Notes under the pieces: model-generated | Seen by the model: only the letters and a program-made list of their open reading frames with translations | Told to the model about the DNA's origin: nothing | Databases searched by the model: none | Sequence record: SRR22947727_2786 | DNA length: 39,019 nt | Direction: 5' to 3' (one strand) | In this document: positions 1 to 27,073 of the stretch, piece after piece | How the letters are laid out: each line of letters begins with the position of its first letter | Position numbering within the stretch: position 1 is the first letter of the stretch | Translations under genes and position numbers: made by a program

Positions 1-203
1 CTAGGGACAGAAAATATTTCCTACCCTAGCGAGGTTTTTTGGAGGTCTAATATACTGTTTATAGAAATTTCCCGGCGACTTTTTGAAAACCCGCCAGCTC
101 GATTCCCCTCGAACCTCCGCAGCCAGCAAAACTTTTTTTGCTACTAAACCTCGGAGAATACTGCAATTTCCACTAAAACACAAAATAATATCAAGATTAG
201 CGT

Positions 204-231
204 TTGACAACTACGATAACTATGCTAGGAT
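204..231 (+). promoter_or_regulatory. sigma70-like early promoter
   Basis: TTGACA (204-209), 16 nt spacer, TAGGAT preceded by TGn; upstream of first ORF with AAGGAG RBS. Confidence 0.65.
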
Positions 232-283
232 CTACTGAGACGAAGCGAGTTTTACTAACTACTAACACGAAGGAGACCATGAC

Positions 284-466
284 ATGAAATCAGAACTTAT
301 CGTACACTACAGCAATAAATCATCACACCCATTCAGAGGCACTCAAGTATTCAACGAGCATAATCTCAGACGATGGGCTATAGCCTTAGTAAAGAACGCA
401 GACATTATTGGAGCTACTTTATATGTTCGCCAGCCAGATGGGACAGACATAGCTGAAGAATATTAG
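284..466 (+). CDS. hypothetical early protein (60 aa)
   Basis: ORF with AAGGAG RBS downstream of promoter; no recognisable motif. Confidence 0.65.
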   Translation: MKSELIVHYSNKSSHPFRGTQVFNEHNLRRWAIALVKNADIIGATLYVRQPDGTDIAEEY

Positions 467-525
467 AGACCCCCCCTCCCCTATTTTTACCCCCCCTACC
501 CTTTATTATTTTGGAGATAACTAAA

Positions 526-609
526 ATGACACTACTAGACTTAATTATCGTGGCAGGCATCATGCTTGTCGGTTCACAAATCATAATCACAATGACAGGA
601 GAAAAGTAA
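526..609 (+). CDS. small hydrophobic peptide (27 aa, MTLLDLIIVAGIMLVGSQIIITMTGEK)
   Basis: Below ORF-track cutoff; GGAG RBS; one hydrophobic stretch; TAATG overlap with next ORF. Confidence 0.55.
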   Translation: MTLLDLIIVAGIMLVGSQIIITMTGEK

Positions 610-689
610 TGAAGATCATGCTACTATACGTACTGATTATGATCGCACCCTTCATCGTATGGAGTATCGCAGATAGATTCGGAAAATAA
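609..689 (+). CDS. small hydrophobic peptide (26 aa, MKIMLLYVLIMIAPFIVWSIADRFGK)
   Basis: AGGAG RBS, TAATG coupling, single TM-like segment. Confidence 0.55.
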   Translation: MKIMLLYVLIMIAPFIVWSIADRFGK

Positions 690-692
690 TAC

Positions 693-721
693 TTGACACT
701 AACTAGACATTCGTATACCTT
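693..721 (+). promoter_or_regulatory. sigma70-like early promoter
   Basis: TTGACA-17 nt-TACCTT, followed by A/C-rich leader and AGGAG RBS. Confidence 0.7.
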
Positions 722-761
722 TACTACAGACACGAAACAAAACTTTAACAGGAGATAAGAG

Positions 762-989
762 ATGAGTCAGTTCCAGAAATCAAAACATTGCCGCAACTGC
801 GGATGTAACACACTACACGTAAAACCAGACGTATCCTGTACCAGCTTCGGACTTAGCTTTGGCATGGCAGCGTTAACTGTGCTTACTTGCGGCTTATTCC
901 TACCAGTCGCTATCATCATGATAGTGCTTGATGGAGCTAAGCGTGGATCTGTCGGCTACAACTGCCAGCGATGCGGCACTCGAAACTAA
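762..989 (+). CDS. membrane-associated zinc-ribbon protein (LITAF-like architecture)
   Basis: CRNC ... hydrophobic segment ... CQRC; AGGAG RBS. Confidence 0.6.
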   Translation: MSQFQKSKHCRNCGCNTLHVKPDVSCTSFGLSFGMAALTVLTCGLFLPVAIIMIVLDGAKRGSVGYNCQRCGTRN

Positions 990-1005
990 CATAAGGAGAA
1001 CTAAC

Positions 1006-1437
1006 ATGAAGATTAAGAAGACAGTTGGGTTTATTAGCGGAGAAGGTAGTCGTAAAGGCTACGACATCCATACCGAGTGCGGTGAGGTGTTCCGAGCTAC
1101 ACCACTAGGATCACAACGATACCAGTGCAACGGGCTAAGCTACAAGAGCCTCAGAGCAGTCAAGGATAGCATAATCAAGGGAGCATTAGCTGAGACTGAT
1201 GATGACGAGGTAGCTGCTGATGAGACCTCGACATCCGATGGGGCGGACACTTGGGATTGTGTGCATCCATGTGCTTTACTGATCGCATTGCTCAAAGCAG
1301 AAGACTACCTCGGCTACCGGACAGCTATCGAAACTCTCGATAACTATGGATGGCTCGACTGCATGGGTCGGCCAGACATCGCCAGAGCAGAGCGTGAGAT
1401 AGCTCGTGTAAAAAATCTCAAAAAATCTTCAGAATAG
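1006..1437 (+). CDS. hypothetical early protein (143 aa)
   Basis: Start moved to ATG 1006 behind AAGGAG; basic N-terminus, acidic linker. Confidence 0.7.
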   Translation: MKIKKTVGFISGEGSRKGYDIHTECGEVFRATPLGSQRYQCNGLSYKSLRAVKDSIIKGALAETDDDEVAADETSTSDGADTWDCVHPCALLIALLKAEDYLGYRTAIETLDNYGWLDCMGRPDIARAEREIARVKNLKKSSE

Positions 1438-1440
1438 CTG

Positions 1441-1469
1441 TAGACAGCCATGAACCAAGTCGATACCTT
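1441..1469 (+). promoter_or_regulatory. sigma70-like early promoter
   Basis: TAGACA-17 nt-TACCTT; same -10 hexamer as promoter at 693. Confidence 0.6.
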
Positions 1470-1484
1470 ATACGTATCAAGAGT

Positions 1485-1517
1485 ATGAGCTTCGCCGGAT
1501 ACGCTCTAACCGGCTTT
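1485..1517 (+). repeat. 33-nt dispersed leader element, copy 1 (pseudoknot/leader-peptide candidate)
   Basis: ATGAGCTTCGCCGGATACGCTCTAACCGGCTTT; 32/33 identical to 8968-9000. Confidence 0.9.
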
Positions 1518-1546
1518 ACTTTCACTTTACTTTGAGGAGCTTTATT

Positions 1547-1633
1547 ATGTACGATTTCGATTCACCAGTTCAGGACATCACTCGCGAAGACTTCACCGCA
1601 CTTTGGATGGAGTACATCAGCGACGAAAACTGA
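1547..1633 (+). CDS. small acidic peptide (28 aa, MYDFDSPVQDITREDFTALWMEYISDEN)
   Basis: GAGGAG RBS; directly downstream of promoter and leader element. Confidence 0.6.
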   Translation: MYDFDSPVQDITREDFTALWMEYISDEN

Positions 1634-1771
1634 AAAAACTTTTCTGGCGTAAGTGTAAAAACGCCAAGCAGTTACGGAAACGAGAGAAACTAATTTTAAT
1701 TTTAATCCGCTAAACCCGTCAATTAGTGACTATACCTTTTGACGGGCAACAACAACGAAAGAGAGTTAAAC

Positions 1772-2092
1772 ATGAGTAAGCACACCACACGACCGACAGA
1801 CGACACTAGCAAAGACTTCTGCGTGTTCTTCATGTCGATCAAAAATTATCCCGGCGAGCTTTACTACAGTACACGTAAAGAAGCTCAGGAGATGTTCGAT
1901 ACGATGACAGATGGGAGTATCATCTGGGCTAAGATCGTCTACATGCCAGAGTTCAAGGTAGTGGCTGAATTCAATAATGAGTTCCACGCTCCTATCCTGA
2001 CGAAGACAAAGGCAGTCGAGAAGCCTTGGGTTAACACTGTCGATGGAAAATCTCCAGAAGCAGCGGTTGACTACGCAAACTTCGAAGACTAA
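1772..2092 (+). CDS. hypothetical early protein (106 aa)
   Basis: ATG 1772 behind GAGAG and a CAA-rich leader; TACCTT -10 at 1733-1738. Confidence 0.65.
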   Translation: MSKHTTRPTDDTSKDFCVFFMSIKNYPGELYYSTRKEAQEMFDTMTDGSIIWAKIVYMPEFKVVAEFNNEFHAPILTKTKAVEKPWVNTVDGKSPEAAVDYANFED

Positions 2093-2137
2093 ACTATACG
2101 TATTACAGTTCTTTACTTTTCTTGGAGGGAAACAGAT

Positions 2138-2416
2138 ATGAAAGATTACACAACCAATAACGCTAACCCAGCACTTCCACCACAGTGGAACGATTGCACT
2201 ACTTGCGGTGCAGGCATCACTCGGAAGACTGACGAATCACAGCAATGCCGAAGCTGTCGAGAAGATCAGGTCAGGCGAGAGATTAGCGGTGCATACGCCG
2301 ATTACGAGCAGCTAGACCGCGAGGTGTTCGGTAGCTACGGTTTCGGTAAGAATAACAATCCTAGTGAGTGGGGTTATGGTGATTCAGATTGTAGCTCAAC
2401 AGGGGGGTGGGGTTAA
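2138..2416 (+). CDS. hypothetical zinc-finger protein
   Basis: CTTC ... CRSC pairs; GGAGG RBS. Confidence 0.65.
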   Translation: MKDYTTNNANPALPPQWNDCTTCGAGITRKTDESQQCRSCREDQVRREISGAYADYEQLDREVFGSYGFGKNNNPSEWGYGDSDCSSTGGWG

Positions 2417-2417
2417 T

Positions 2418-3005
2418 ATGACAGATTCAGAACTATACCAAAACCTACTGGACGCATCAGAGGCTTTGCTAAGAAATGACATGTTATTGGAAGGTGTATC
2501 CCATGTAGAGGAGGTAGCCAACCAAGCATACGTAATGATAAAAGACGGTAGCTTGAAGTTATCGAACGAGAACCCATCATATAAAGCTGTAGTCTTGACA
2601 GCAAAGAAGGTCTTAACTGGAGGTACTGCCACTTATCGGAACGATAAAAACAAGAGCGATTTCAAGAAATTGAAGTACGGAAAGTTTGTCCAGTACCAAG
2701 GCTTAGAAGATCAGATAGCAGGCTTTACCTACTCTGAACCCGATTCAGACCTCGATGAAGTTCTACCACTAATCCTAGGCATGATGAGCGAGAAAGGCAG
2801 GGAGATCGTCGAAGGTATCCAACCCTTCGAAGGTAATATTAATGCCTATGCTGAGTCTATCGGCATACCGCAGAGAACAGCCCACGACAGAGTTAATAAA
2901 GCTCGTAAAGAGTTCCTTAGCCTCATCCCTGAAGACTGCGTCCTTTACAACACCTCTCGTCGGTTACGCCGTCGATACAATATTGGAGATTACGATGTCA
3001 ATTAA
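2418..3005 (+). CDS. sigma-70/ECF-like transcription factor (region 4 HTH)
   Basis: C-terminal MSEKGREIV...AESIGIPQRTAHDRVNKARKEF resembles a sigma region 4 HTH; ~195 aa. Confidence 0.55.
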   Translation: MTDSELYQNLLDASEALLRNDMLLEGVSHVEEVANQAYVMIKDGSLKLSNENPSYKAVVLTAKKVLTGGTATYRNDKNKSDFKKLKYGKFVQYQGLEDQIAGFTYSEPDSDLDEVLPLILGMMSEKGREIVEGIQPFEGNINAYAESIGIPQRTAHDRVNKARKEFLSLIPEDCVLYNTSRRLRRRYNIGDYDVN

Positions 3006-5232
3006 GAACTACCGCAATTGGCTCGTCTGGCAACAGAAGCACCAACCCGTCTCTGCCCTCACAGGCAAGTCAGCAGGCTGGAACCGCAACCTAGCCACAT
3101 ACGCCGAAGCAGAGCAATTCTGCCTCGACAATCCCGGCTACCAGATTGGTCTATGCTTCTCCGATGACTTGCCGTATGTAGGCTTAGACCTCGACGCTTG
3201 CATCGGTGAGAATGGCTTAGAAGACTGGGCTAGAGACGTTATCTTATCGTTGGTTGATTGTATGGTCATCGACAATTTGAGCGTCTCAGGCACGGGTGCG
3301 AAGGTTGTGCTGCGATGTAGCGAGGCTGTCAAGAGAGGTGTTAAGTTTGTTGAGGCTGCTCAGCATGGCGACCATAAGCCGCAGATTGAGCTATTCAGCG
3401 ATAACAAATACTTCGCATTGACTTCACCGCTCTACATCGACGACGAAGCTGATGAAGCTAACCTAGACACTCTTAGCGAGATCATGGGCTACGATGTTAC
3501 AGCTTTCGAGGCGATAGAATCTTCAGACGCTACATCCGGCGAGACATCGCCAGAAGAGCTACGAGGGATGCTCGACAAGCTAGACATCGAGAACTACGAC
3601 ACTCGCGAGAGTTGGTTCAAGATGCTGAGTGCGGCTCACCATGCTACAGGAGGCTCAGACGAAGGTTTAGAAGTCTTTAAAGCATGGTCGGCGGGTGATG
3701 AGTCCAACTACAACGAAGCCCATTTACAGCGAGACTGGGATAGCTTGGACACTAACACCGCTAGGCCAATCACAGTGGCTACAATCGTTAAGGAGATAGC
3801 TCCTGAAGATCGGCCACGCATTGAACCTAACCAAGACTTCGAGCCAATCGCAGCACCTAAGTCAACATCTCGGCTACTAGGCTGGTTGCTGAATGAGACG
3901 ACTCGAAACCACAGCAAAGTGGTGGAGCAGTTGGCTGTAGACCGCGAAGGTGAGGTTATCAAGTATGTAGTGGATTGGGATAGCTGGATCATCTACGATG
4001 GGAGTAAATGGGTGCGAGACAATAAAGGCTCACGCTTCCACCAGCATATGATCGAGTACGTAAATTCGCTTATGTCTCGCATACCCGACAATGGGGACAG
4101 CGAGCAGGCAGCTAAGGCACTAGGCTGGGTGAGTAGCTTGCTGAACTATAACCAGACTATGGGAGTAGTAAGGCAGGCAAAAGGTGAACGGGGCTTGATG
4201 ATTACGCTGGAGGAGATGGGTGAAAAGCCTTACCTCCTAAATTTCCGAAATGGGACTTATGATCTTGAGCAAGATGAATTTCGAGGGCACGAACCGGGCG
4301 ACTACCTATTCCACTCCTGTGAGACGGATTATGTGGCTGACCAAAAGGCTGAGTTATGGGATCGAGTTATTAGGGAGATTTTCGATGGAAATACTGAACT
4401 CATTAGCTACGTCAGACGGTTGCTTGGGTATAGCATCTCAGGCGACACTAGCGATCCTGTATTCAACATCTTTTACGGTGGCGGTGCGAATGGTAAGTCT
4501 ACAGTTGTTGGTACTATCAGCGGTCTGCTTGGCGAATATTCTAGGGATTTGCCCTCAGAGCTATTCAACAAGCAGAAAGAACTGCATCCTACATACCTCG
4601 CAACTTTACGAGGGGCAAGGCTTGCAGTCGTCGCAGAGATGGAAAGTGACGTACAACTCGCGGAAGCGACAATCAAGAAGGTGACATCATCTGACAAGAT
4701 TGAAGCACGTAGGATGCGAGAAGATCCTTGGAGCTTTAAGCCTTCACATACTTCGGTGCTGTGTACTAATCACCTCCCGACTGTACGTGGAAGCGATAAG
4801 GGCATCTGGCGGCGGCTCAAGTGTGTACCGTTTAACGTGGATCTGTCAGATAGGAAGGATGCGACGATTCCAGAGCGACTCACGCATGAATATGCTGGGA
4901 TAGCTAACTGGCTCATCGAAGGTTATCGCGAGTATAAGAAGCAAGGCATCGGGAGCTGTAAAGCAGTCGAAGAAGCTACAGCATCTTATCGAGATGGTGA
5001 AGATGAGTTTCGCCGAATGTTCGAGGATCTTTTTGCTGAAGCTGAAGATGCCTGCTTACCAGTTGTGGACGCACTCCAAGTGTATGCCGCGAATGGTGGC
5101 CGGTTAGGGCGTAAGAAGTTCGTGAGTGAGATGGAGAGGATGGGCTTCACAGCCAAGAGAAACCGAGTCAACGGGGCACAGGTTCACAGTTTCAAAGGTT
5201 TACGATTAGTAATGACAGAATTTGGAGGATGA
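2995..5232 (+). CDS. primase-polymerase / PriCT-2 / D5-like SF3 helicase (P4-family primase)
   Basis: N-terminal GLDLDAC, SVSGTG, IELFS motifs; PriCT-2-like WFKMLSAAHH..FKAWS; LNFRNGTYDL; Walker A GGGANGKST; DKGIWRR; ATG 2995 behind GGAG. Confidence 0.9.
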   Translation: MSIKNYRNWLVWQQKHQPVSALTGKSAGWNRNLATYAEAEQFCLDNPGYQIGLCFSDDLPYVGLDLDACIGENGLEDWARDVILSLVDCMVIDNLSVSGTGAKVVLRCSEAVKRGVKFVEAAQHGDHKPQIELFSDNKYFALTSPLYIDDEADEANLDTLSEIMGYDVTAFEAIESSDATSGETSPEELRGMLDKLDIENYDTRESWFKMLSAAHHATGGSDEGLEVFKAWSAGDESNYNEAHLQRDWDSLDTNTARPITVATIVKEIAPEDRPRIEPNQDFEPIAAPKSTSRLLGWLLNETTRNHSKVVEQLAVDREGEVIKYVVDWDSWIIYDGSKWVRDNKGSRFHQHMIEYVNSLMSRIPDNGDSEQAAKALGWVSSLLNYNQTMGVVRQAKGERGLMITLEEMGEKPYLLNFRNGTYDLEQDEFRGHEPGDYLFHSCETDYVADQKAELWDRVIREIFDGNTELISYVRRLLGYSISGDTSDPVFNIFYGGGANGKSTVVGTISGLLGEYSRDLPSELFNKQKELHPTYLATLRGARLAVVAEMESDVQLAEATIKKVTSSDKIEARRMREDPWSFKPSHTSVLCTNHLPTVRGSDKGIWRRLKCVPFNVDLSDRKDATIPERLTHEYAGIANWLIEGYREYKKQGIGSCKAVEEATASYRDGEDEFRRMFEDLFAEAEDACLPVVDALQVYAANGGRLGRKKFVSEMERMGFTAKRNRVNGAQVHSFKGLRLVMTEFGG

Positions 5233-5438
5233 TCATGATGGATTGGATTAGAGAGAAGCTGGCAAGTAAGCAGCAGGCAATCGAGGACGGTGTATGCAAC
5301 CTATGCGGTGAACCTGTTCTCAGCTTTAAAGACCAACTGAGTCTCGACGAGTATGAGATCTCAGGAATCTGCGGGAACTGCCAAGATGAGTTATTTGAAC
5401 CTGACCCATATTTCGAGGAGGACGAAAATGAAGTATAA
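5229..5438 (+). CDS. small zinc-binding protein
   Basis: CNLC ... EYEISGICGNCQD; ATGA overlap with primase. Confidence 0.65.
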   Translation: MIMMDWIREKLASKQQAIEDGVCNLCGEPVLSFKDQLSLDEYEISGICGNCQDELFEPDPYFEEDENEV

Positions 5439-6204
5439 ACTTAGACCTAGCGGCTCCGCTCGCTGGTTAGCTTGCCCAGCATCTTTGGTGCTGGAGGCTG
5501 GTGTAGCTCCTGAGAAGCGAGACGACATGATCGCGGCTTATCTCGGCTCAGCAACACACGAACTGCTTGAGATGTGTATCAAGCAGCAGAAGCGTGCTGA
5601 GGAGTTCCGAGGCGAGCATATCACTGTGTTTGATGAAGAGTACCAGAACTTTCCTTATGTTAAGGAAGTTGATCAGGCAATGATCGAGTCGGTTAACTTC
5701 TTCATCGACGAAGTGGGCGAGCCATTGCCAGACTCGGAAGTTTACTCTGAGTTGGAGATGGAACATAGCGAGCTACCAGAGTTGCGAGGTACGGCGGATT
5801 TCCTGTGTATTCACGGAGAACACGCATTACTCGCAGACCTGAAGAATGGAACGGGTATCGTTCAGGTACAGAAGAGAGATGGGACAATTAACACTCAGCT
5901 TCTCTCCTATGCCTCGATGGTGTTCGATAAGTTCCCGCAGGTTGAGACTATGACGATAGCTATTGTCCAACCAAACGGTAAAACTAAGAAGAAAGTACGC
6001 TCCACAGGAATAAATCGCAAAACTTGTGAAATATACCTTGACAGGGTACGAGAGGCCGCTAAACTAGCTAATGAGTCAACCGAAGCTACACTGGACGTGA
6101 TAACTACAACCGGCTCTCACTGTTTCTTTTGCAAGGCTCGTAACCTATGCCCTGCAAGAGGTAAGGCAGAAATCGACAGGGATTTCGGAGGCAGCGATGC
6201 TTGA
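5428..6204 (+). CDS. Cas4-like PD-(D/E)xK exonuclease (DUF2800 family)
   Basis: RPSGSARWLACP, GTAD, DLKNG, QLLSYA, C-terminal CFFCKARNLCP; GAGGAGG RBS. Confidence 0.85.
   Translation: MKYKLRPSGSARWLACPASLVLEAGVAPEKRDDMIAAYLGSATHELLEMCIKQQKRAEEFRGEHITVFDEEYQNFPYVKEVDQAMIESVNFFIDEVGEPLPDSEVYSELEMEHSELPELRGTADFLCIHGEHALLADLKNGTGIVQVQKRDGTINTQLLSYASMVFDKFPQVETMTIAIVQPNGKTKKKVRSTGINRKTCEIYLDRVREAAKLANESTEATLDVITTTGSHCFFCKARNLCPARGKAEIDRDFGGSDA
6038..6065 (+). promoter_or_regulatory. internal sigma70-like promoter upstream of SSB gene
   Basis: TTGACA-16 nt-TAAACT inside the DUF2800 gene. Confidence 0.4.
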
Positions 6205-6277
6205 TGAAGAGTGGTACGGATTATGTATATTTTTAGAATGGCTTTATTCGGAGGAGACGCTAACCAAAGTAAAATAA
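6197..6277 (+). CDS. small peptide (26 aa, MLDEEWYGLCIFLEWLYSEETLTKVK)
   Basis: GGAGG RBS, overlaps end of DUF2800 gene. Confidence 0.4.
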   Translation: MLDEEWYGLCIFLEWLYSEETLTKVK

Positions 6278-6307
6278 GTTTAAGAAGTTTAAGAAGTTTT
6301 TAAGTTT
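6275..6307 (+). repeat. AT-rich short tandem repeat (AAGTTT/AAGTTTAAG units) in SSB leader
   Basis: taagtttaagaagtttaagaagtttttaagttt. Confidence 0.8.
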
Positions 6308-6336
6308 ACTAAGTATTAAAAAGAAAGAGATTTATT

Positions 6337-6852
6337 ATGTCTACCAGAATTACAACCCCAACATTTATTGCCAGCTTCCCTAACCTTTTCGAAGCATCAG
6401 GCTTCGAAGGGCAAGAACCTAAGTTTAGCGTAACAATGCTTTGGGAAAAAGAAGAAGACCTATCGGCACTGAAGGCTGCATGTGAAGCAGCAATCGTAAA
6501 GAAGTGGGGCGATAAGAGACCAGCTAACATTCAATTTCCACTGAAAAACGGTGACGAGAAGCTGGATGCAGAGGGTAAAGTACGACCTGAGTATAAGGGT
6601 CGGAAGTATGCCATCGCGAAGGCTAAGCAATCAGATCCACCAAAGGTTGTGGACTTGGAGCTTAACCCGGTTCTCGACAAAACAGTCGTCTACGGCGGTT
6701 GTGAGTTGCGAGCAGCGGTCTCTGCTTACGGCTGGGATTTTGCTGGCAAGAAGGGTGTAAGCCTATATCTCGGCAATGTGCAGCTAGTGTCTCCCGGAAC
6801 CCCATTCGGTGGCGGCGGCAACTCGGTAGAATCTGACTTCGGTGGATTCTAA
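6337..6852 (+). CDS. single-stranded DNA-binding protein (DUF2815, T7 gp2.5-like)
   Basis: SFPNLFE, PKFSVT, PLKNGDEK, VYGGC, KKGVSLYLGNVQ, tail ending DFGGF; follows DUF2800. Confidence 0.88.
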   Translation: MSTRITTPTFIASFPNLFEASGFEGQEPKFSVTMLWEKEEDLSALKAACEAAIVKKWGDKRPANIQFPLKNGDEKLDAEGKVRPEYKGRKYAIAKAKQSDPPKVVDLELNPVLDKTVVYGGCELRAAVSAYGWDFAGKKGVSLYLGNVQLVSPGTPFGGGGNSVESDFGGF

Positions 6853-6866
6853 TCATTACTAACCAC

Positions 6867-6900
6867 AGTAGCCCCTCAATAGTGGGGGGCTGCTTTTTCT
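6867..6900 (+). terminator. intrinsic terminator after SSB
   Basis: AGTAGCCCCTC / GGGGGGCTGCT stem followed by T tract. Confidence 0.8.
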
Positions 6901-6923
6901 TTTATTTTTATTAAGATTACCCA

Positions 6924-6951
6924 TTGATCTCGCCGATACCATGTGTATACT
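6924..6951 (+). promoter_or_regulatory. sigma70-like promoter of HNH cassette
   Basis: TTGATC-16 nt-TATACT; shares CATGTGTATACT with 8589-8616. Confidence 0.6.
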
Positions 6952-6987
6952 GTAACTGAGGCCAAGAAACTAAACGAAAGGGAGACC

Positions 6988-7626
6988 ATGAAAACTTGTA
7001 GCAAATGTAAGATTGAGAAGCCTTTCGAGGACTTCTATAAGCGTAAATCAACGAAAGATGGATTTCGGAGCCAATGCAAGGTTTGCGAGAAAGCCTACGC
7101 TAGATCGGAAGCTGGGAGGGCTTCAGCAGCGAGGTCGAACGCCAAGCCTTCAACAAAGGCTAGGAAGCTGGCTTGGAAGAAGACAGAGAAGGGAAGGGAG
7201 GCCGAGGCTAGATACGAGAGGTCGCAAGCAGGGAGAGCCAAGAACTCTAGGTATAGGAAATCGGATAAAGGTAGAGCTACTTGGCAGGCATACTACGCCA
7301 AGCACTCTGATGAATACAAGCTACGTGCTAAGGAACACGGCGTTACAAGAAGAGCATGGAAACACGACACAACTTCAGACGACTGGAAACCATCAGAGGT
7401 CTTCAACTCAGCCAACTGGAGATGCTTCTACTGCGGAGTTGACGTGGAGGTTAGGCGAGAGCGTTGGGTCAGCCAGCCTAACGAAGCACAAGCAGATCAT
7501 TTCATACCATTAAGTAGAGGAGGAACTAACGAGCGTAAAAACATCGTCTGCTCATGCGGACAGTGTAACTTGAGTAAGGGAAGTAAGAACCCGTTTGATT
7601 TCATTCGGGACAACATTAACCAGTAA
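6988..7626 (+). CDS. HNH endonuclease with N-terminal zinc finger
   Basis: KTCSKC...CKVC; CFYCG, DHFIPLSRGGTN, CGQCNLSKG; ATG 6988 behind GGGAG. Confidence 0.9.
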   Translation: MKTCSKCKIEKPFEDFYKRKSTKDGFRSQCKVCEKAYARSEAGRASAARSNAKPSTKARKLAWKKTEKGREAEARYERSQAGRAKNSRYRKSDKGRATWQAYYAKHSDEYKLRAKEHGVTRRAWKHDTTSDDWKPSEVFNSANWRCFYCGVDVEVRRERWVSQPNEAQADHFIPLSRGGTNERKNIVCSCGQCNLSKGSKNPFDFIRDNINQ

Positions 7627-7642
7627 TTGGAGGAGTAGAGTT

Positions 7643-8335
7643 ATGGCAGTTAAGAAGACAGAGTATAATGAGCGAGTTCTTATAATTGGGGACACACATT
7701 GCCCTTGTATGAGAGATGGATACATCGACTTCCTCAAAGGGATAGAAGAGGCTTGGGGAACTACGCGAACGGTACACATTGGTGATTTGTCAGACATGGC
7801 AGCCCTGAGTTTTCACACCAAGCACCCAACCCTCAAGAATGTTCTAGGGGAGTGGGAAGAGGCTAGGGAGCAGATCGCAGAGCTAACTGAGGCGTTCCCT
7901 AATGTCGATCTACTAACAGGAAACCATTGTGCATTACCTGCCAGAGTAGCTCTCGAAGCAGGAATCCCACCGGAGTTTCTGAGGTCACAGAAGGATCTAT
8001 TCGATCTACCGGAAGGCTGGACTGTATACCCTCGATACTACAAGCTAGAGATTGACGGGTGTCTTTATTTCCACGGTGATGCTGGAAAGAGTACTTCGAT
8101 CAACAATGCTAAAGATCACTTTATGTCCTGCATCAACGGCCATCGCCATGCTCAAGCTGGTGTAACATACTACGCCAACAAGCACGCCAGAGTTTTCGGT
8201 ATGCAAGTCGGCTGCGGAGTTGACGACACTAGATTGGCGCTTGATTACGGCCAACGATACAACGCAAAGAGTATCTTAGGTTGTGGTGTCGTGATAAATG
8301 GCAAGACCGCCATCTTCGAACCGTTTGAAGTTTAA
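7643..8335 (+). CDS. calcineurin-like metallophosphoesterase
   Basis: GDTH, GDLSD, GNH, HGD, GHRH motifs; GGAGGAG RBS. Confidence 0.88.
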   Translation: MAVKKTEYNERVLIIGDTHCPCMRDGYIDFLKGIEEAWGTTRTVHIGDLSDMAALSFHTKHPTLKNVLGEWEEAREQIAELTEAFPNVDLLTGNHCALPARVALEAGIPPEFLRSQKDLFDLPEGWTVYPRYYKLEIDGCLYFHGDAGKSTSINNAKDHFMSCINGHRHAQAGVTYYANKHARVFGMQVGCGVDDTRLALDYGQRYNAKSILGCGVVINGKTAIFEPFEV

Positions 8336-8346
8336 GGAGAACTAAA

Positions 8347-8508
8347 ATGCTTGATAAACTGCTGGTAGCCATGCCCGCCATCGTAGGCGTATTGTACGCT
8401 CTCACCGGGCTTGGCTACCTTTGGAAACGAGAATATGGCTGGGCGATTGTCTGGACAAGCTACGCTCTGGCTAATTTGGGGCTGATAATGGCATCTTATG
8501 GAAAATAA
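8347..8508 (+). CDS. small membrane protein (53 aa, two TM-like segments)
   Basis: AAGGAG RBS; MLDKLLVAMPAIVGVLYALTGLGYLWKREYGWAIVWTSYALANLGLIMASYGK. Confidence 0.7.
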   Translation: MLDKLLVAMPAIVGVLYALTGLGYLWKREYGWAIVWTSYALANLGLIMASYGK

Positions 8509-8523
8509 TTCCTAAGAATTTGA

Positions 8524-8578
8524 CACGCTAAAAAGCGGGGTTTCCTGACAAAAACAGGGAATCCCGCGATTTAGAGTG
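8524..8578 (+). other. long intergenic stem-loop
   Basis: 13-bp stem 8535-8547/8555-8567 with two G-U pairs, extendable by CTAAA/TTTAG and CAC/GTG. Confidence 0.7.
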
Positions 8579-8588
8579 AACATTTCGC

Positions 8589-8616
8589 TTGAACATGTCG
8601 TTATCATGTGTATACT
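8589..8616 (+). promoter_or_regulatory. sigma70-like promoter for GNAT-polymerase operon
   Basis: TTGAAC-16 nt-TATACT, followed by CAA-rich leader. Confidence 0.6.
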
Positions 8617-8655
8617 AAGGGCATGACAAACAACAACACACAACGGAGCGAAACA

Positions 8656-8961
8656 ATGACTTACTCAGAACCAAAAATTGCATACAGCAAAGCAAAAGGC
8701 AACCCATTCAAGACTCAAATCGCTCGACTCCCAAACGGCGGCATGTGCATCATCGAGAAGAATTGGGAGACAGGCAAAAGAGCTAAGTATAAGTGGCGAG
8801 CCGTGATGTGTGAACCTAACGTATTCGAGATAGAGAACTGCGAAGGTGTGAAAGAGACATACGTATTAGGCTACAACCAAGTAGAAGGTTGGGAAGGAGA
8901 GCCAGAATATGGGAAAACACGGAAAGAAGCCGTACTAGCCTGCCTTATCAAATACTGGTAG
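8656..8961 (+). CDS. hypothetical protein (101 aa)
   Basis: ATG 8656 behind GGAG; first gene after promoter. Confidence 0.65.
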   Translation: MTYSEPKIAYSKAKGNPFKTQIARLPNGGMCIIEKNWETGKRAKYKWRAVMCEPNVFEIENCEGVKETYVLGYNQVEGWEGEPEYGKTRKEAVLACLIKYW

Positions 8962-8967
8962 AACACC

Positions 8968-9000
8968 ATGAGCTTCGCCGGATACGCTCTGACCGGCTTT
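8968..9000 (+). repeat. 33-nt dispersed leader element, copy 2
   Basis: ATGAGCTTCGCCGGATACGCTCTGACCGGCTTT; one substitution versus 1485-1517. Confidence 0.9.
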
Positions 9001-9026
9001 TACTTAATCACTTTTGGAGGAAAGAC

Positions 9027-9539
9027 ATGATAACTTACAGAAATATGATCGCTGATGATTATGACCGCATCGAACAGATCGAAGAAGATCGTGGAGCAAT
9101 GGACTCATTTTGCGTTGAAGAGCTTGAAGAGATGTTCAATAACGACGAGAACAACTTCGCTACCTACAATGCCTTAGTTGCTCTCGATGGCGATTCAATC
9201 GTCGGATACTTAGTTAGCTTTACACTAGTCCAGTTCCCAAAACGCTCAGCAATCATTCGATGCTATGTCGACCACGATTATCGACGACAGGGGATCGGCT
9301 CAGAACTAATCAAACGGGTCGAACCAACTAAGTCAGGCTATCGTGTGTCTATCGAAGTTGGCGAAGTAGACTACGCTTCTGCGGCCTTCCTTCGCAAGAA
9401 TGGCTACACCGTGACCGAAGTGGTCGATGCTGAGTATAACGAAGAAGGTGAGCTTGAGCTGGAAGGCTATATGATCCTTCAGAACGAGAAGAAGCCAAAG
9501 ATGTCACTAACGCAGCGATTAACTTGGGGGTCTAACTAA
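9027..9539 (+). CDS. GNAT family N-acetyltransferase (RimI-like)
   Basis: IVGY, acetyl-CoA motif YVDHDYRRQGIGSELI, AFLRKNGY; ATG 9027 behind GGAGG. Confidence 0.85.
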   Translation: MITYRNMIADDYDRIEQIEEDRGAMDSFCVEELEEMFNNDENNFATYNALVALDGDSIVGYLVSFTLVQFPKRSAIIRCYVDHDYRRQGIGSELIKRVEPTKSGYRVSIEVGEVDYASAAFLRKNGYTVTEVVDAEYNEEGELELEGYMILQNEKKPKMSLTQRLTWGSN

Positions 9540-11410
9540 TGAGGATTTTACACATCGACTTCGAAACATCCTCGAAGGTCAACATCAAAGACACTGGCAC
9601 TTATCGCTATTGTGCAGATCCCAGTACAGAAGTCATCTGTGTGGGCTGGGCATTTGACGATGAGACAGTGCAGGTCTCTGAGAGGCTGCCTAATGAGATC
9701 CGACGACATATCCGCGAAGGTGGGCTAGTCTATGCTCATAACGCAGCTATGGAGGAGCAGGTGCTTTATCACATCTACGGCATCGAGAACGTCAATATGC
9801 GATGTACCTCAGCAGTAGCGAGCTACCATGCTTTACCGGCATCACTAGAGGCTGTCGCAGAGCATCTAGGTCTCGAAGTCAAGAAGGATAAAGAAGGCTC
9901 CAAAGTCCTTCGTAAGCACTTCAAGACTCCGGTTGACGAGATACCAGCATCGGATGCTCAGGTCATTAAAGCCTACTGTAAGCAAGATGTCGAAGTTGAG
10001 CGAGCCATTCATCGTAGGCTTGGCGAACTGCCAGCTAACGAGTTGGCGGTGTGGCAACTGGATCAGAAGATGAATCGTCGAGGTATCAAAGTAGACGTAG
10101 CACTAGCTCAGAACTGCATCGAGGCCGTTAATGCTGCTAAGGCAACCATCGAGACTGATCTACAGAGACTAACAGAGGGAGCCGTTGAGAAGCCTACACA
10201 GGCTAAGCGTATCATCACATGGCTCGAATCTCGCGGGATCGAGACAGATAATCTCACGAAGGATACTGTGGTTGAGTTACTTGAGCAGGATCTACCGGCT
10301 GAAGTCCGCGAAGTGCTGCTATGTAGGCAGCGAGGAGGTGGCTCAGCCACGGGTAAGTTTGAGAAGGCTCTACACATGGCAGGCTCAGATGATCGCGTCA
10401 GAGGCAACCTGAAGTATCACGGGGCAACTACAGGACGCTTCTCTGGTAGTGGCTTGCAGATCCAGAACTTACCTCGCGGCAATGTTAGCGACACTGACGC
10501 TCTAGCTGATATGTTTTTGCGGAAGGATATAAGCCAAGTGGAGGAGGTCGCTGGTAATGTGTACGATGGTGCTAAGTCAGCGGTTAGGCCACTTCTGACG
10601 GCATCTAGCCCTGATAAGCGTCTGATCGTCGCGGACTACTCGGCCATCGAATGCCGGGTGTTGGCTTGGTTAGCTGGCCAAGATGATCTGGTCGAGGAGA
10701 TTCGAAGTGGGGTTGATACCTATTGCAGCTTCGCATCGAAGGTCTTTAAGGAGCCAGTCACGAAGGCTGACAAGAAGAAGCGAGCTGTGGGTAAGGTTGC
10801 TATTCTTGGGCTAGGGTACGGCATGGGTGCGGCTAAGTTCCAAGATACTTTGAAAACTATGGCAGGCTTGCAAGTTAACCTAAACTTCGCTCAGTCTGTG
10901 GTCGATACTTATCGCAGCACCTTCAGCCAGATCAGAGATTATTGGTACGAACTAGAACGGAACGCTATCGAAGCTGTCCGGTCTGGGGAAAGCAAAGATG
11001 GTAAATGGTATCGAGAAGGTTCAGTATTGCATCACATCCTACCTAGCGGTAGGGTCATGCGATACCAGAATGTCTCGTTAATGCGAGGGAAGTTCGACAA
11101 TGATGCCATCAAATATCGGCGGCCTCTAGGTAAGAATATGGTATGGAGCGACACTTACGGGGCTAAGCTCAGTGAGAATATAACCCAAGCTGCTGCTAGA
11201 GATGTAATGGCTGATAGCATGATCGAACTGGATAAGGCGGGTATTAAGCTACTCGCTACAGTCCACGACGAAGTGATAGCTGAGGCAGAAGCATCTGAAG
11301 CAGACTTGACGCTCAGAAAGATGGAAGCTATTATGGTTGCAGACAAGACGTGGAGTAGTGGCCTACCGTTGGCTACTGAAGGTTTTACTAGTTTTAGGTT
11401 TAAGAAATAG
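9539..11410 (+). CDS. DNA polymerase family A with 3'-5' exonuclease
   Basis: Exo HIDFET, AHNA, YCKQDV; TTGRFS; motif A DYSAIECR, motif B RAVGKVAILGLGYG, motif C VHDE. Confidence 0.95.
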   Translation: MRILHIDFETSSKVNIKDTGTYRYCADPSTEVICVGWAFDDETVQVSERLPNEIRRHIREGGLVYAHNAAMEEQVLYHIYGIENVNMRCTSAVASYHALPASLEAVAEHLGLEVKKDKEGSKVLRKHFKTPVDEIPASDAQVIKAYCKQDVEVERAIHRRLGELPANELAVWQLDQKMNRRGIKVDVALAQNCIEAVNAAKATIETDLQRLTEGAVEKPTQAKRIITWLESRGIETDNLTKDTVVELLEQDLPAEVREVLLCRQRGGGSATGKFEKALHMAGSDDRVRGNLKYHGATTGRFSGSGLQIQNLPRGNVSDTDALADMFLRKDISQVEEVAGNVYDGAKSAVRPLLTASSPDKRLIVADYSAIECRVLAWLAGQDDLVEEIRSGVDTYCSFASKVFKEPVTKADKKKRAVGKVAILGLGYGMGAAKFQDTLKTMAGLQVNLNFAQSVVDTYRSTFSQIRDYWYELERNAIEAVRSGESKDGKWYREGSVLHHILPSGRVMRYQNVSLMRGKFDNDAIKYRRPLGKNMVWSDTYGAKLSENITQAAARDVMADSMIELDKAGIKLLATVHDEVIAEAEASEADLTLRKMEAIMVADKTWSSGLPLATEGFTSFRFKK

Positions 11411-11420
11411 GAGGAGTGAG

Positions 11421-12368
11421 ATGAGTAAGAAATGGAAGGCTATCTATCTCGATTGGGATGGTGTGCTATGGGACTTCATGCAGGCTTTTTGCGACTGGTA
11501 TGAGTTAGACATCCCTGCTTCAGGTAACTGGGAGTTCTATAAATCTGTCGGAATGAGTGATGTGGAGTTCCACGACAAGCTAGAACGTCTACCGAAGGAC
11601 TTCTGGCAGCAGCAGAAGTATGTACTACCTCACGCTAACATTCTCGTAGAATGGGCTAAGGCTAATGCTGACAGGGTTTCTATCCTGACAGTAGCACCTG
11701 AGCGAGGGTGTGTACAGGGTAAGACTGCCTTAGCTGGCTCTATCTTCGGTCTTGGGGTGTATGCTGTTGATGATGCGTCACAGAAGGTCAGATACGCTAA
11801 GGAAGGCTGCCTACTGATCGACGACAAGTCTAGTAGCGTGGTTCGGTTCGCCCAGACTAATGCACTAGCTAGTGGGTTAATATGGCCTGCTGAGTACAAT
11901 ATGGGACTCTGCGAGTCGTGGTACTTCGATGTTATGGATCTTGACACGTCGTCCATCGAGGACATCAAGAAGAAAGCTCACTGGGCTTTAACTGACGAAG
12001 ATCGCTCAGCACTGTTGAAGGATCTGAAGGATGAGAAGGCTGAGAAGCCTGCTTTGGATTACGAAGCTATGGATGAGGCGAAGAGGCGTAAGATGACCCC
12101 GATGTATTCTGGGTTGCTTGCTTACTTCCCTGATGCACTGGCTCAGGTAGCCCAGAACTCGATGGTAGGCCACTACCAACACAATGACCCGTCTGACCCT
12201 ATGTACTGGGATAGAACGAAGTCAGCGGATGAGATGGACGCTATGATACGCCACATGGCAGATCATAGCAAAGATCCATACGACAGCGATGGAAGGTTGC
12301 ACATGTCAAAGGTCGCATGGAGAGCTTTGGCGTTCGTTCAGAAATATATTGAGGAGGAGCAGAAATGA
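11421..12368 (+). CDS. HAD 5'(3')-deoxyribonucleotidase-like domain fused to dATP/dGTP diphosphohydrolase-like (DUF5664-like) domain
   Basis: N-terminal YLDWDGVL and LLIDDK; C-terminal SGLLAYFPDALAQVA...DAMIRH...HMSKVAWRALA; AGGAGG RBS. Confidence 0.75.
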   Translation: MSKKWKAIYLDWDGVLWDFMQAFCDWYELDIPASGNWEFYKSVGMSDVEFHDKLERLPKDFWQQQKYVLPHANILVEWAKANADRVSILTVAPERGCVQGKTALAGSIFGLGVYAVDDASQKVRYAKEGCLLIDDKSSSVVRFAQTNALASGLIWPAEYNMGLCESWYFDVMDLDTSSIEDIKKKAHWALTDEDRSALLKDLKDEKAEKPALDYEAMDEAKRRKMTPMYSGLLAYFPDALAQVAQNSMVGHYQHNDPSDPMYWDRTKSADEMDAMIRHMADHSKDPYDSDGRLHMSKVAWRALAFVQKYIEEEQK

Positions 12369-13686: not shown

Positions 13687-13727
13687 AAAAAAGCCCCCAC
13701 AGCCTAATAAGCTATGGGGGCTTTTTT
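13687..13727. terminator. bidirectional intrinsic terminator between the two arms
   Basis: AAAAAAGCCCCCA...TGGGGGCTTTTTT. Confidence 0.9.
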
Positions 13728-25765: not shown

Positions 25766-27073
25766 TTACTTAATTGATACCTTGAATCCGTTACCTTTGA
25801 CTTCAACAGCTTCGCCGTTGTTGCCAGAAAGTGGCTCGTTCTCGGTCTGCTCTGAAAGTTCGATCTGAGCTTTGAGGCTTTCGATCTGATCCTTCTGAGA
25901 CTTGATGTACTCTGCTTGTGCAGCAGCGAAGTCTAGGCCGTTCATGAAGAAATCAAGTCCAGCTTCTTTACCGAAGTTCTCGATGTATTGTCCGAGTTCT
26001 TCCTTCGAGAAGTGGCCTTTTTCTACAGGAGATTGAGCAGCAGGTGATCCGCCGTCTACGATCTCTTCAACTTCTTCAACTTCAGGAGCTTCAGGAGCTT
26101 CTTCAACTTCTTCAACTTCTTCAACTTCTTCGACTTCAGGAGCTTCTTCAACTTCAGGAGCTTCTTCAACTTCTGGAGCTTCTTCAACTTCTGGAGCTTC
26201 TTCACAGTCACATTCAGCTTCTTCGCAACAAGGTGCGGCTTCTTCTGCTTGCAACTCTTCAACTGGTGCATCTTCAACGATTGGAGTCTCTACGACTTCT
26301 TCGATGTTCTGCTCTTCTTTGTTAAGTTCCACGATTTGTAGTCCTTTAAGGGAGAGAAAATTAGAAACGAAGCCGAGCAGACGATCTGGCTCGACACCGA
26401 AGAGACTTCCTTCGGGTTTGGTATCCGATAGCCCTAGTCCGTATTCCAATAGCTCAGCAGCTTTGGCTGCTGTATCGTCGCGATGGAAGAGACCGTCAGG
26501 ATTAGCAGCAGGCTCGTCAACAATGTCAACGAATCGTAACTGTCCAAGTCTAACATGGGGGTAGTTATTAACGTTATTAGGATCAGGAGAGATTGGGTTA
26601 GCGGCTGCGTACATCTCTTCTGCCTCAGCGTCTCTCATGAAGCTGATAGAGGCTCCAAACGCTTCAGGGTCATCAGTGGCAAGGTCAAGCAAGAAACCCG
26701 CTAGATCGCCGTCTGGGGTCTTGTGAGCAGCCTTCCAGAAGTGAAGGTCTCCTCTAACTTTGCCATCGCCATCTGCTCGGTAGAATACTCGGCCTAAACC
26801 TTTGCTGAGTGAGTCTCCGCATTGGTTAGGATGAGTGTATCGAGATTTGATTCCCTTCTTAGCTTGACCTAGTTCGGCAGCTACTTGAGAGATGAACTCC
26901 CGATCAACCCAAGCACCGTGTCCGAGAGCTTCACCTTCAGTGATAACTGCGAAGTTCTTGATGTATCCGGCTCCGTATTCGCCACCAGTGCGGCTAATCT
27001 CAGGGGCTTGATCGAATCCTCGAACGGTAACGCCTCGGAATAGTGTAGGTTCCATATAAGTCTTATTCGCCAT
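25766..27073 (-). CDS. prohead protease / scaffold fusion
   Basis: After portal; GEALGHG, SRYTHP, FGASISF, VDIVDEPAANPDGLF; acidic C-terminal scaffold-like region. Confidence 0.75.
   Translation of the reverse strand: MANKTYMEPTLFRGVTVRGFDQAPEISRTGGEYGAGYIKNFAVITEGEALGHGAWVDREFISQVAAELGQAKKGIKSRYTHPNQCGDSLSKGLGRVFYRADGDGKVRGDLHFWKAAHKTPDGDLAGFLLDLATDDPEAFGASISFMRDAEAEEMYAAANPISPDPNNVNNYPHVRLGQLRFVDIVDEPAANPDGLFHRDDTAAKAAELLEYGLGLSDTKPEGSLFGVEPDRLLGFVSNFLSLKGLQIVELNKEEQNIEEVVETPIVEDAPVEELQAEEAAPCCEEAECDCEEAPEVEEAPEVEEAPEVEEAPEVEEVEEVEEVEEAPEAPEVEEVEEIVDGGSPAAQSPVEKGHFSKEELGQYIENFGKEAGLDFFMNGLDFAAAQAEYIKSQKDQIESLKAQIELSEQTENEPLSGNNGEAVEVKGNGFKVSIK
26063..26205 (-). repeat. intragenic 18/9-bp tandem repeats encoding EEAPEV / EEV
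   Basis: Repeated ttcttcaacttc(a/t)ggagc on + strand. Confidence 0.9.

Follow-up and report, generated by a model that had tools for sequence, protein, structure and literature searches.

In the 39,019-nucleotide (nt) stretch of DNA from sequence record SRR22947727_2786, whose full length is called here the window, we found a 33-nt element, ATGAGCTTCGCCGGATACGCTCT[A/G]ACCGGCTTT, that is present twice on the + strand, at 1485-1517 and 8968-9000. The two copies are identical at 32 of 33 bases (97%), the sole difference being A1508 as compared to G8991. The element has homologs in related marine contigs, its G/C stem is constrained to pair, it always lies between genes in the sense orientation, and breakpoints between gene cassettes fall exactly at its edges. 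Our tentative interpretation, which we favour while giving it somewhat less than an even chance, is that the element is a small RNA-level module borne by a recombining regulatory cassette, and that it serves as an attenuator, in other words as an intrinsic terminator that is weak and leaky. The RNA level of its action, the termination of transcription and the partial nature of this termination are all three things that we infer.

The repeat had been described in a first-pass annotation of the window as a duplicated element with one change, and we recovered it exactly. When up to three mismatches were allowed, the window gave two matches as compared to none in 100 dinucleotide-preserving shuffles. 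Copy 1 reads GAGC (1487-1490), UUC (1491-1493), GCCGG (1494-1498), AUAC (1499-1502), GCUC (1503-1506), UAA (1507-1509), CCGGC (1510-1514) and UUU (1515-1517), with the 11-nt loop AUACGCUCUAA (1499-1509) held between the GCCGG and CCGGC arms. In copy 2 the same blocks are found at 8970-8973 (GAGC), 8977-8981 (GCCGG), 8986-8989 (GCUC), 8993-8997 (CCGGC) and 8998-9000 (UUU), and the loop, AUACGCUCUGA, spans 8982-8992. The general layout is A(U/C)GAGC, a pyrimidine linker of 3-4 nt, a 5-bp G/C hairpin, an 11-nt loop and UUU(U)A.

A covariance model of the hairpin (R1) was run over 33 sources, 307 kb in total. It matched the two window copies (copy 1 with 56.0 bits and an E value of 2.6e-11, copy 2 with 61.3 bits) and, in related marine contigs, three others that are distinct from these, namely L001 (7598-7637, the same copy being present in L009), L016 (6423-6462, the same copy in L011) and L025 (744-783). 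The window copies and those of L001 and L016 are members of the seed alignment of R1; the L025 copy, which scored 39.7 bits (E 4.6e-07), is the only one outside the seed. An eighth row, in L004 at E 6.5, contained no hairpin and was rejected. When R1 was run unfiltered on 13 other relatives (77.6 kb, including L003, L002, L014 and L078), the best E value was 2.5 and no hairpin was found. The family is small and sporadic, with five copies in four contigs, or phage lineages. The element is absent at both sites from L003, the closest relative, whose polymerase is 84% identical to that of the window.

Other searches were consistent with this distribution. A first pattern scan of viral contigs returned no stretch, and a degenerate pattern returned four: those in the L001 and L016 contigs were true, while those in L010 and L012 were attributed to chance, their stem arms not being complementary. 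A further pattern scan of viral contigs found the L001 and L016 contigs again and nothing new. A primase-based search of viral contigs retrieved only the L003 contig, and an alignment-based search with the polymerase added L078, which is without the element. In species genomes, one for each of 185,579 species, the degenerate pattern gave 32 stretches, none of which had all five stem pairs or the upstream GAGC; a host-derived repeat, either REP-like or CRISPR-repeat-like, was rejected since this search, made with one pattern, gave no true copy. A blastn search of 8966-9012 against phages gave only matches at E=3 within Klebsiella phage genes, which we took as chance. The first-pass annotation had been unable to assign the element to a known family, and the comparison with Rfam agrees with it. 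At gathering scores the window had no match, including to the preQ1, SAM-II/V and fluoride pseudoknot riboswitches. Up to E 10, no match was found in 8930-9050, and the matches in 1430-1570 were an intron model (E 6.3, 1534-1560), which lies outside the element, and RybB (E 9, 1510-1548), which reaches only the last 8 bases of the element.

Conservation among the five copies is uneven along the element. GAGC is invariant, and the alignments showed no similarity among the copies 5' of A(U/C)GAGC. The linker between GAGC and the stem is variable (UUC, UUUC or UUCU). The loop reads AUA(C/U)GCUCU(A/G)A, i.e. AUACGCUCU(A/G)A, except that L025 has U for one C. Directly 3' of the stem all five copies have UUU, which continues as UUU(U)A and then as a loosely similar, pyrimidine-rich leader up to GGAGGA. 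The stem itself, which we call S2, reads GCCGG/CCGGC in both window copies and GCCCC/GGGGC in L001, L016 and L025. Pair counting over the five copies gave double-sided changes in two of the five pairs (stem positions 4-5), with 40 of 40 cells paired; as a control, the 3' partners were slid by 1-3 columns either way, and pairing went down to 27.5-70%. The two double-sided changes and the loss of pairing on sliding indicate that the hairpin is under a pairing constraint. Its predicted pair probability is 0.97-1.0 in all five natural contexts. The region from GAGC to ATG is alike at 54 of 57 bases between L001 and L016, whereas the proteins encoded just downstream are 25% identical.

All five copies belong to early operons of a single clade of uncultured marine siphophages, and are intergenic, in the sense orientation and 13-19 nt upstream of a strong Shine-Dalgarno sequence (SD). 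The first-pass annotation had reported a U-rich tract, a strong ribosome binding site (RBS) and unrelated genes after both copies, and these are present. The copy 1 leader (1515-1549, + strand) has a U-rich, G-free stretch of 19 nt, the SD GAGGAG at 1534-1539 and the ATG, at 1547, of an open reading frame (ORF) of 28 amino acids (aa). The copy 2 leader (8998-9029, + strand) has a U-rich, G-free stretch of 18 nt, the SD GGAGGA at 9016-9021 and the ATG, at 9027, of a GNAT gene (Pfam E 3.8e-12), which is followed by DNA polymerase A at 9539-11410. Similar leaders (..ACTTTAC/ACTTTAA..GGAGGA) also precede genes without the element, and therefore the element-specific part runs from GAGC through the stem. 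The genes directly 3' of the element in L001 (7652-8416) and L016 (6477-7316) have signal-peptide-like N-termini and are secreted protease-like; the L001 protein matches Peptidase_M10 (matrixin) with an E value of 2.4e-05 and contains HELLH.

Upstream of copy 1 lies a putative sigma-70-type promoter, TAGACA-17-TACCTT (1441-1469, + strand), with a likely start site near 1476, so that copy 1 would begin about 9-10 nt after it, in agreement with the distance of about 9 nt predicted earlier. This promoter was not listed by the consensus scan because only 7 of its 12 bases match. It aligns with the near-consensus TTGACG-17-TAAGAT of L003 (274-302), which is at the same place after the homologous upstream ORF and whose leader is without the element. 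The remaining four copies (copy 2 and those of L001, L016 and L025) lie 6-10 nt 3' of the stop codon of a promoter-proximal gene that has a strong promoter cassette. In the window this cassette (8519-8660, + strand) consists of a 13-bp hairpin (8535-8567), a promoter of the extended -10 sigma-70 type, TTGAAC-16-TATACT (8589-8616), and a CA-rich leader to the ATG at 8656, and drives a 101-aa gene whose end lies 8 nt before copy 2. The cassette recurs before unrelated genes in L001 (6830-6970 and 8427-8567), L016 (5281-5418 and 7363-7500) and L025 (321-460), and is present in all four element-bearing contigs; in L001 it forms a homologous 141-nt repeat, with two copies 98% identical. It was not found in L003, L002, L014 or L021. 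In L003, L021, L018 and L014, which are without the element, a promoter TTGCC(T/G)-17-TA(A/T/G)ACT stands directly before the same 34-aa/GNAT leader, at the place that the element occupies in the window and in L025. No usable -35/-10 pair was found within the element or between the hairpin and the SD in either copy, and in the window there is no promoter between copy 2 and the GNAT-polymerase operon. Transcription must therefore pass through copy 2, whatever the element does.

The edges of the element coincide with breakpoints. Contigs of four DNA runs were mapped to the window, the relatives therein sharing 0.42-0.49 of sampled words. In contigs of all four runs, 8508 is joined to 9002, that is to the 3' edge of copy 2 (other letters may intervene at the joint), and the promoter cassette, the 101-aa gene and copy 2 are thereby omitted. 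Also in all four runs, 8519, the start of the cassette, is joined to 1394. As compared to L001, L016 has an extra promoter and a 90-aa gene inserted exactly at the 5' edge of GAGC. One DNA run has a different sequence immediately before 1535, in the SD of the 28-aa gene. In these comparisons the element behaves as a module boundary at which gene cassettes are gained or lost.

In the attenuator interpretation, the G/C hairpin of the nascent transcript and the U's that directly follow it would release part of the host RNA polymerases, and this partial release would throttle the read-through that comes from the strong promoter cassettes upstream and enters the genes downstream. Attenuation may be tuned or regulated by the conserved loop or by a GAGC:GCUC contact. 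The element would spread and persist in the role of a module boundary, since its edges are exactly where cassettes are inserted or lost. The interpretation is in line with the sense orientation of all five copies and their location after a promoter or a promoter-proximal gene, and with the strong conservation of the element in diverged surroundings. The essential GNAT-polymerase operon lies 3' of copy 2 without a promoter of its own, so that efficient termination at this site would be lethal; termination would have to be leaky or conditional.

A resemblance to a terminator had already been pointed out in the first-pass annotation. What stands of it is the maintained G/C-rich stem, under selection for pairing, with U's directly after it and on the sense strand, as in an intrinsic terminator or attenuator. 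Several features weigh on the other side. A 5-bp stem with a conserved 11-nt loop is a poor shape for an intrinsic terminator, and a terminator scan (loops of 3-8 nt) gave nine terminator-like sites with the element not among them. The clear terminators of this phage have stems of 12 and 19 bp (6867-6894 and 13687-13727). The hairpin is weak, with -8.3 to -9.6 kcal/mol (about -8 to -10), and the local nested folds, computed with ViennaRNA, which predicts no pseudoknots, are no more stable than those of shuffles (z -0.5 to -1.4). Conservation of the loop and of the 5' GAGC is more than a plain terminator requires. On the 3' side, the U-rich flank is like element-free leaders and thus may not be a terminator U tract. 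Copy 1 follows its promoter, whereas at 6867/6924 and 8535/8589 the terminator comes first and the promoter second. The comparison covers only about three independent lineages, in which the stem change may be one event. Finally, a symmetric change of half-sites in a DNA palindrome would look alike, and for this reason the stem changes alone do not tell RNA pairing from a palindromic DNA site.

A role at the DNA level, either as a palindromic protein site (a roadblock or operator with the half-sites GCCGG and CCGGC) or as a short recombination linker for cassette swaps, seems to us rather improbable. It would agree with the symmetric half-site changes, which a palindromic operator would show as well, with indel breakpoints exactly at both edges of the element, with two near-identical window copies amid unrelated flanks, and with the sporadic distribution in close relatives. 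A separate inverted repeat with symmetric changes surrounds the promoter at the equivalent site of L003, L021 and L018. In L003 (6542-6574) and L021 (728-760), and also in L014, the -35 and the spacer of the promoter, TTGCCT-17-TAAACT or TAGACT, lie within AGGGCTT...AAGCCCT; the L018 counterpart reads GGGGTT/AACCCC, a symmetric change. This inverted repeat could serve as an operator, or it could be a second structured element. On the other hand, a role in the transcript is better matched by the asymmetry of the conserved centre, by the GAGC on the 5' side and by the sense orientation of all five copies. For a pure recombination linker, lasting complementarity of the stem would not be needed. 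In addition, the half-site centres are 16 bp apart, that is about 1.5 helical turns, a spacing that is unusual for dimeric binders.

Regulatory motifs that are points of recombination have a precedent in the PeSL (promoter-early stem-loop) cassettes of T4-like phages, which consist of a stem-loop, a sigma-70 promoter, an SD and a start codon and are proposed as genetic-exchange points (PMC4122927). PeSL and the element have in common that they are short repeated composite motifs in intergenic early or variable regions, that they end in an SD and a start codon and that they lie near indels or gene replacements. The 33-nt element differs in that it contains no promoter, the defining feature of PeSL, and in that it has 1-2 copies per genome whereas PeSL has many. 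The neighbouring cassette 8519-8660 does have a PeSL-like layout. A second comparison is with SAS (a 13-bp motif, 11-19 per genome) and ESAS (an inverted repeat of 17 bp, its spacer being 4-13 bp) of Cluster K mycobacteriophages, whose function is reported as unknown (PMC3203893). These too are conserved repeats at the translation starts of a subset of unrelated genes, in one orientation, and the ESAS inverted repeat lies just upstream of the RBS-associated sequence. The element differs from them in having no sequence similarity to them, another host group and only two copies in the window.

The first-pass annotation had proposed that the element folds as an H-type pseudoknot. The crossed complementarity that it had read is in the sequence: GAGC can pair with GCUC (S1) and GCCGG with CCGGC (S2), with loops of 3-4, 4 and 3 nt, and the single difference between the window copies falls in the 3-nt stretch between GCUC and CCGGC. 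This is complementarity only. The collected homologs bear out the S2 part of the fold, through the two double-sided pairs described above, and leave the S1 part where it was. Three of three countable S1 pairs never vary, and the fourth, which falls in a gap column and was not counted, reads C-G in all five copies; consequently, S1 gives no covariation evidence for or against the pseudoknot. A scan of viral contigs in which S1 was left free gave eight stretches, six of them by chance, and no S1 variant. A Watson-Crick match of at least 4 bp between a 12-nt flank and an 11-nt loop occurred in 21% of 20,000 shuffles and in 15% of 20,000 random pairs of window segments, and in 50% of controls when G-U pairs were allowed. 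The second helix is neither supported nor contradicted by these results, and the pseudoknot is an unproven hypothesis behind which stands a chance-prone complementarity.

That such a pseudoknot serves as a cis-regulatory RNA, for example by switching between GAGC:GCUC and a pairing of the loop or the 5' flank with the SD, is in our opinion improbable. Both S1 arms are intact in all five copies while the adjoining linker varies in sequence and length, the changes seen are in loops or compensatory, and we judge the loop lengths sterically plausible. Folding predicts that the SD of copy 1 pairs with the 5' flank, the probability that this SD is unpaired being 0.05. This occlusion is inconsistent among copies, the predicted probability ranging from 0.05 to 0.78 over the five contexts, so that no consistent sequestration of the SD was found. 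S1 alone is worth just -3.7 to -4.4 kcal/mol and, as we judge it, the 4-nt junction between the stems hinders simple coaxial stacking. No pseudoknot family of Rfam matched, and S1, which never varies, is without covariation support. An undescribed compact riboregulator is conceivable along similar lines, although we consider it an outside chance: the anti-SD-like GCUCU of the loop would pair either with the upstream SD-mimic GAGC, in which case the pseudoknot forms and the RBS stays free, or with the GGAG downstream, in which case the RBS is blocked, or else the loop would be held by a phage protein. If this were true, any gene placed behind the portable 33-nt cassette by recombination would come under coordinated, switchable control, and marine siphophages would shuffle the element along with gene cassettes.

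The translational operator of T4 gene 32, which is autogenous for the gene of a single-stranded DNA (ssDNA)-binding protein, has a compact pseudoknot at its 5' end and, after it, an unstructured U/A-rich leader that reaches to the RBS. The element is similar in having a compact 5' fold and then a U/A-rich leader to the RBS, its pseudoknot being itself hypothetical. It differs in that the ssDNA-binding protein (SSB) gene of the window (6337-6852) carries no copy of it.

The near-invariance of the loop raises a further alternative, that the hairpin is bound by a phage or host protein which reads the loop, and that it works either as an operator of translation or as a nut-like site at which an antitermination complex would load; two blocks of replication genes would be co-regulated in this way. 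We regard this as unlikely, although it ranks second after the attenuator, before the pseudoknot and, in fourth place, the role at the DNA level. A covarying stem with a near-invariant 11-nt loop (10-11 of 11 bases) is the pattern expected for such a site, and the distance to the SD is short and fixed (13-19 nt). The near-identical window copies stand before a primase/exonuclease/SSB block and a GNAT/polymerase block. In addition, the loop contains (C/U)GCUCU, the opening bases of boxA. However, no candidate binding protein emerged, and what follows the element in L001 and L016 is a secreted protease-like gene instead of replication genes. The absence of the element from both sites in L003 implies that such control would be dispensable.

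The boxA likeness (CGCTCT in the first-pass annotation) does not hold up. With respect to the gamma-proteobacterial consensus GYTCTTTAANA (PMC5725501), GCTCT(A/G)ACCGG fits the first 5 of 10 specified positions, and the rest is inside the stem; its identity as a boxA was therefore rejected. The element is similar to lambda nut/boxA (PMC5725501 and PMC2800207) in having a 5-bp G/C hairpin and (C/U)GCUCU after a promoter-proximal gene and before replication genes. It is unlike them in that the motif lies inside the hairpin loop and that this loop has 11 nt and is not a pentaloop. No N-like protein was identified in the phage.

We also considered a duplicated small gene whose 5' end would be the repeat, since the repeat starts exactly at an ATG, at 1485 and 8968, which opens ORFs of 16 and 20 codons (MSFAGYALTGF...) ending at or in the next RBS. 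The sole difference between the copies, CTA as compared to CTG, is at a third codon position and synonymous, and an in-frame ATG ORF is kept in L001. The start codon is lost in two lineages, L016 and L025, where ACG replaces ATG with no alternative start, and in L016 an in-frame TAA lies two codons upstream. There is no SD before the ATG of copy 2. The stem changes are radical in the protein (Gly to Pro, Thr to Arg) yet exactly compensatory for pairing. With the start codon lost in these lineages, the small-gene explanation is largely refuted, and we consider it very improbable. A related observation is that the 53-aa membrane-protein ORF at 8347-8508 contains, at about 8392-8411, TACGCTCTCACCGG (TACGCTCT.ACCGG), which equals the loop and 3' arm of the element at 13 of 14 bases. 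This likeness may be due to chance, for which a rough post hoc estimate is about 0.01, or may be a trace of the element's origin.

The window looks like the near-complete genome of a siphophage, that is of a tailed phage, which is marine and uncultured. Between about 280 and 13,700 the + strand carries early and replication genes, including a D5-type primase-helicase, a PD-(D/E)XK nuclease, an Enc34-type SSB, GNAT and Pol A, and the - strand carries structural genes, including terminase, portal, major head protein and tape measure protein. No phage RNA polymerase was seen among the large ORFs scanned, and therefore the host polymerase is presumably used. A megablast search of 1-12000 against 50,697 phage records gave no match. 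The best cultured relatives of the polymerase are 34-36% identical, and the relatives are known only as marine metagenome or virome contigs. There is no tRNA or tmRNA in the window.

Some further features were noted in this genome. The early promoters fall into families: two of them share ..ATCATGTGTATACT or ..ACCATGTGTATACT (79% identical; 6924-6951 and 8589-8616), and those at 1441-1483, 2067-2108, L003 274-310 and L016 6071-6099 were also compared. Several have CGAT or CCGAT in the spacer, and several have (A/G)(T/A)ACGTAT as initial transcribed sequence. An HNH endonuclease gene (6943-7626) is skipped in contigs of two of the four runs, by a joint from 6904 to 7625 with 10 other letters between, and depth is 0 at 7108-7371 in all four; it looks like a mobile or dispensable homing-type gene. 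An 18-mer, CGGC(C/G)AGACATCGCCAGA, occurs three times in different coding regions (1369-1386, 3537-3554 and 5715-5732; 100%, 94% and 78%), and high-depth contigs pile up at about 1330-1400. The ORF at 11421-12368 has a dATP/dGTP diphosphohydrolase N-terminal domain (PF18909, E 4.9e-07, 30.1 bits as compared to a cut-off of 27), a name that suggests manipulation of the nucleotide pool. Between the portal and major head genes, a 435-aa minus-strand ORF contains 13 overlapping copies of a repeat with a 9-nt period (26046-26225), and a similar 9-nt repeat is found in L002 (11518-11637). The first early ORF is separated from the small membrane ORFs that come next by a C-rich intergenic tract (466-525), in which there are runs of 7, 4, 7 and 3 C's.

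The earlier proposal of a cis-regulatory RNA outside the known families keeps its hairpin part, a discrete, conserved, intergenic sense-strand structure without a counterpart in Rfam, and is in this way partly supported; its pseudoknot part stays a hypothesis. Attenuator, antitermination site, nuclease block and operator are all candidate functions on the basis of sequence, and so, with a low probability, is a palindromic DNA operator. The family is tiny, with five copies in four contigs, and the element, though no striking discovery, would reasonably be taken into a reporter or termination assay. If functional, this compact hairpin not covered by Rfam would join the few phage regulatory cassettes, such as PeSL and SAS/ESAS, that would both control expression and mark points of module exchange. 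It comes from a little-known clade of uncultured marine siphophages and, with its size of about 30 nt, would in that case be a handy and easily tested part.

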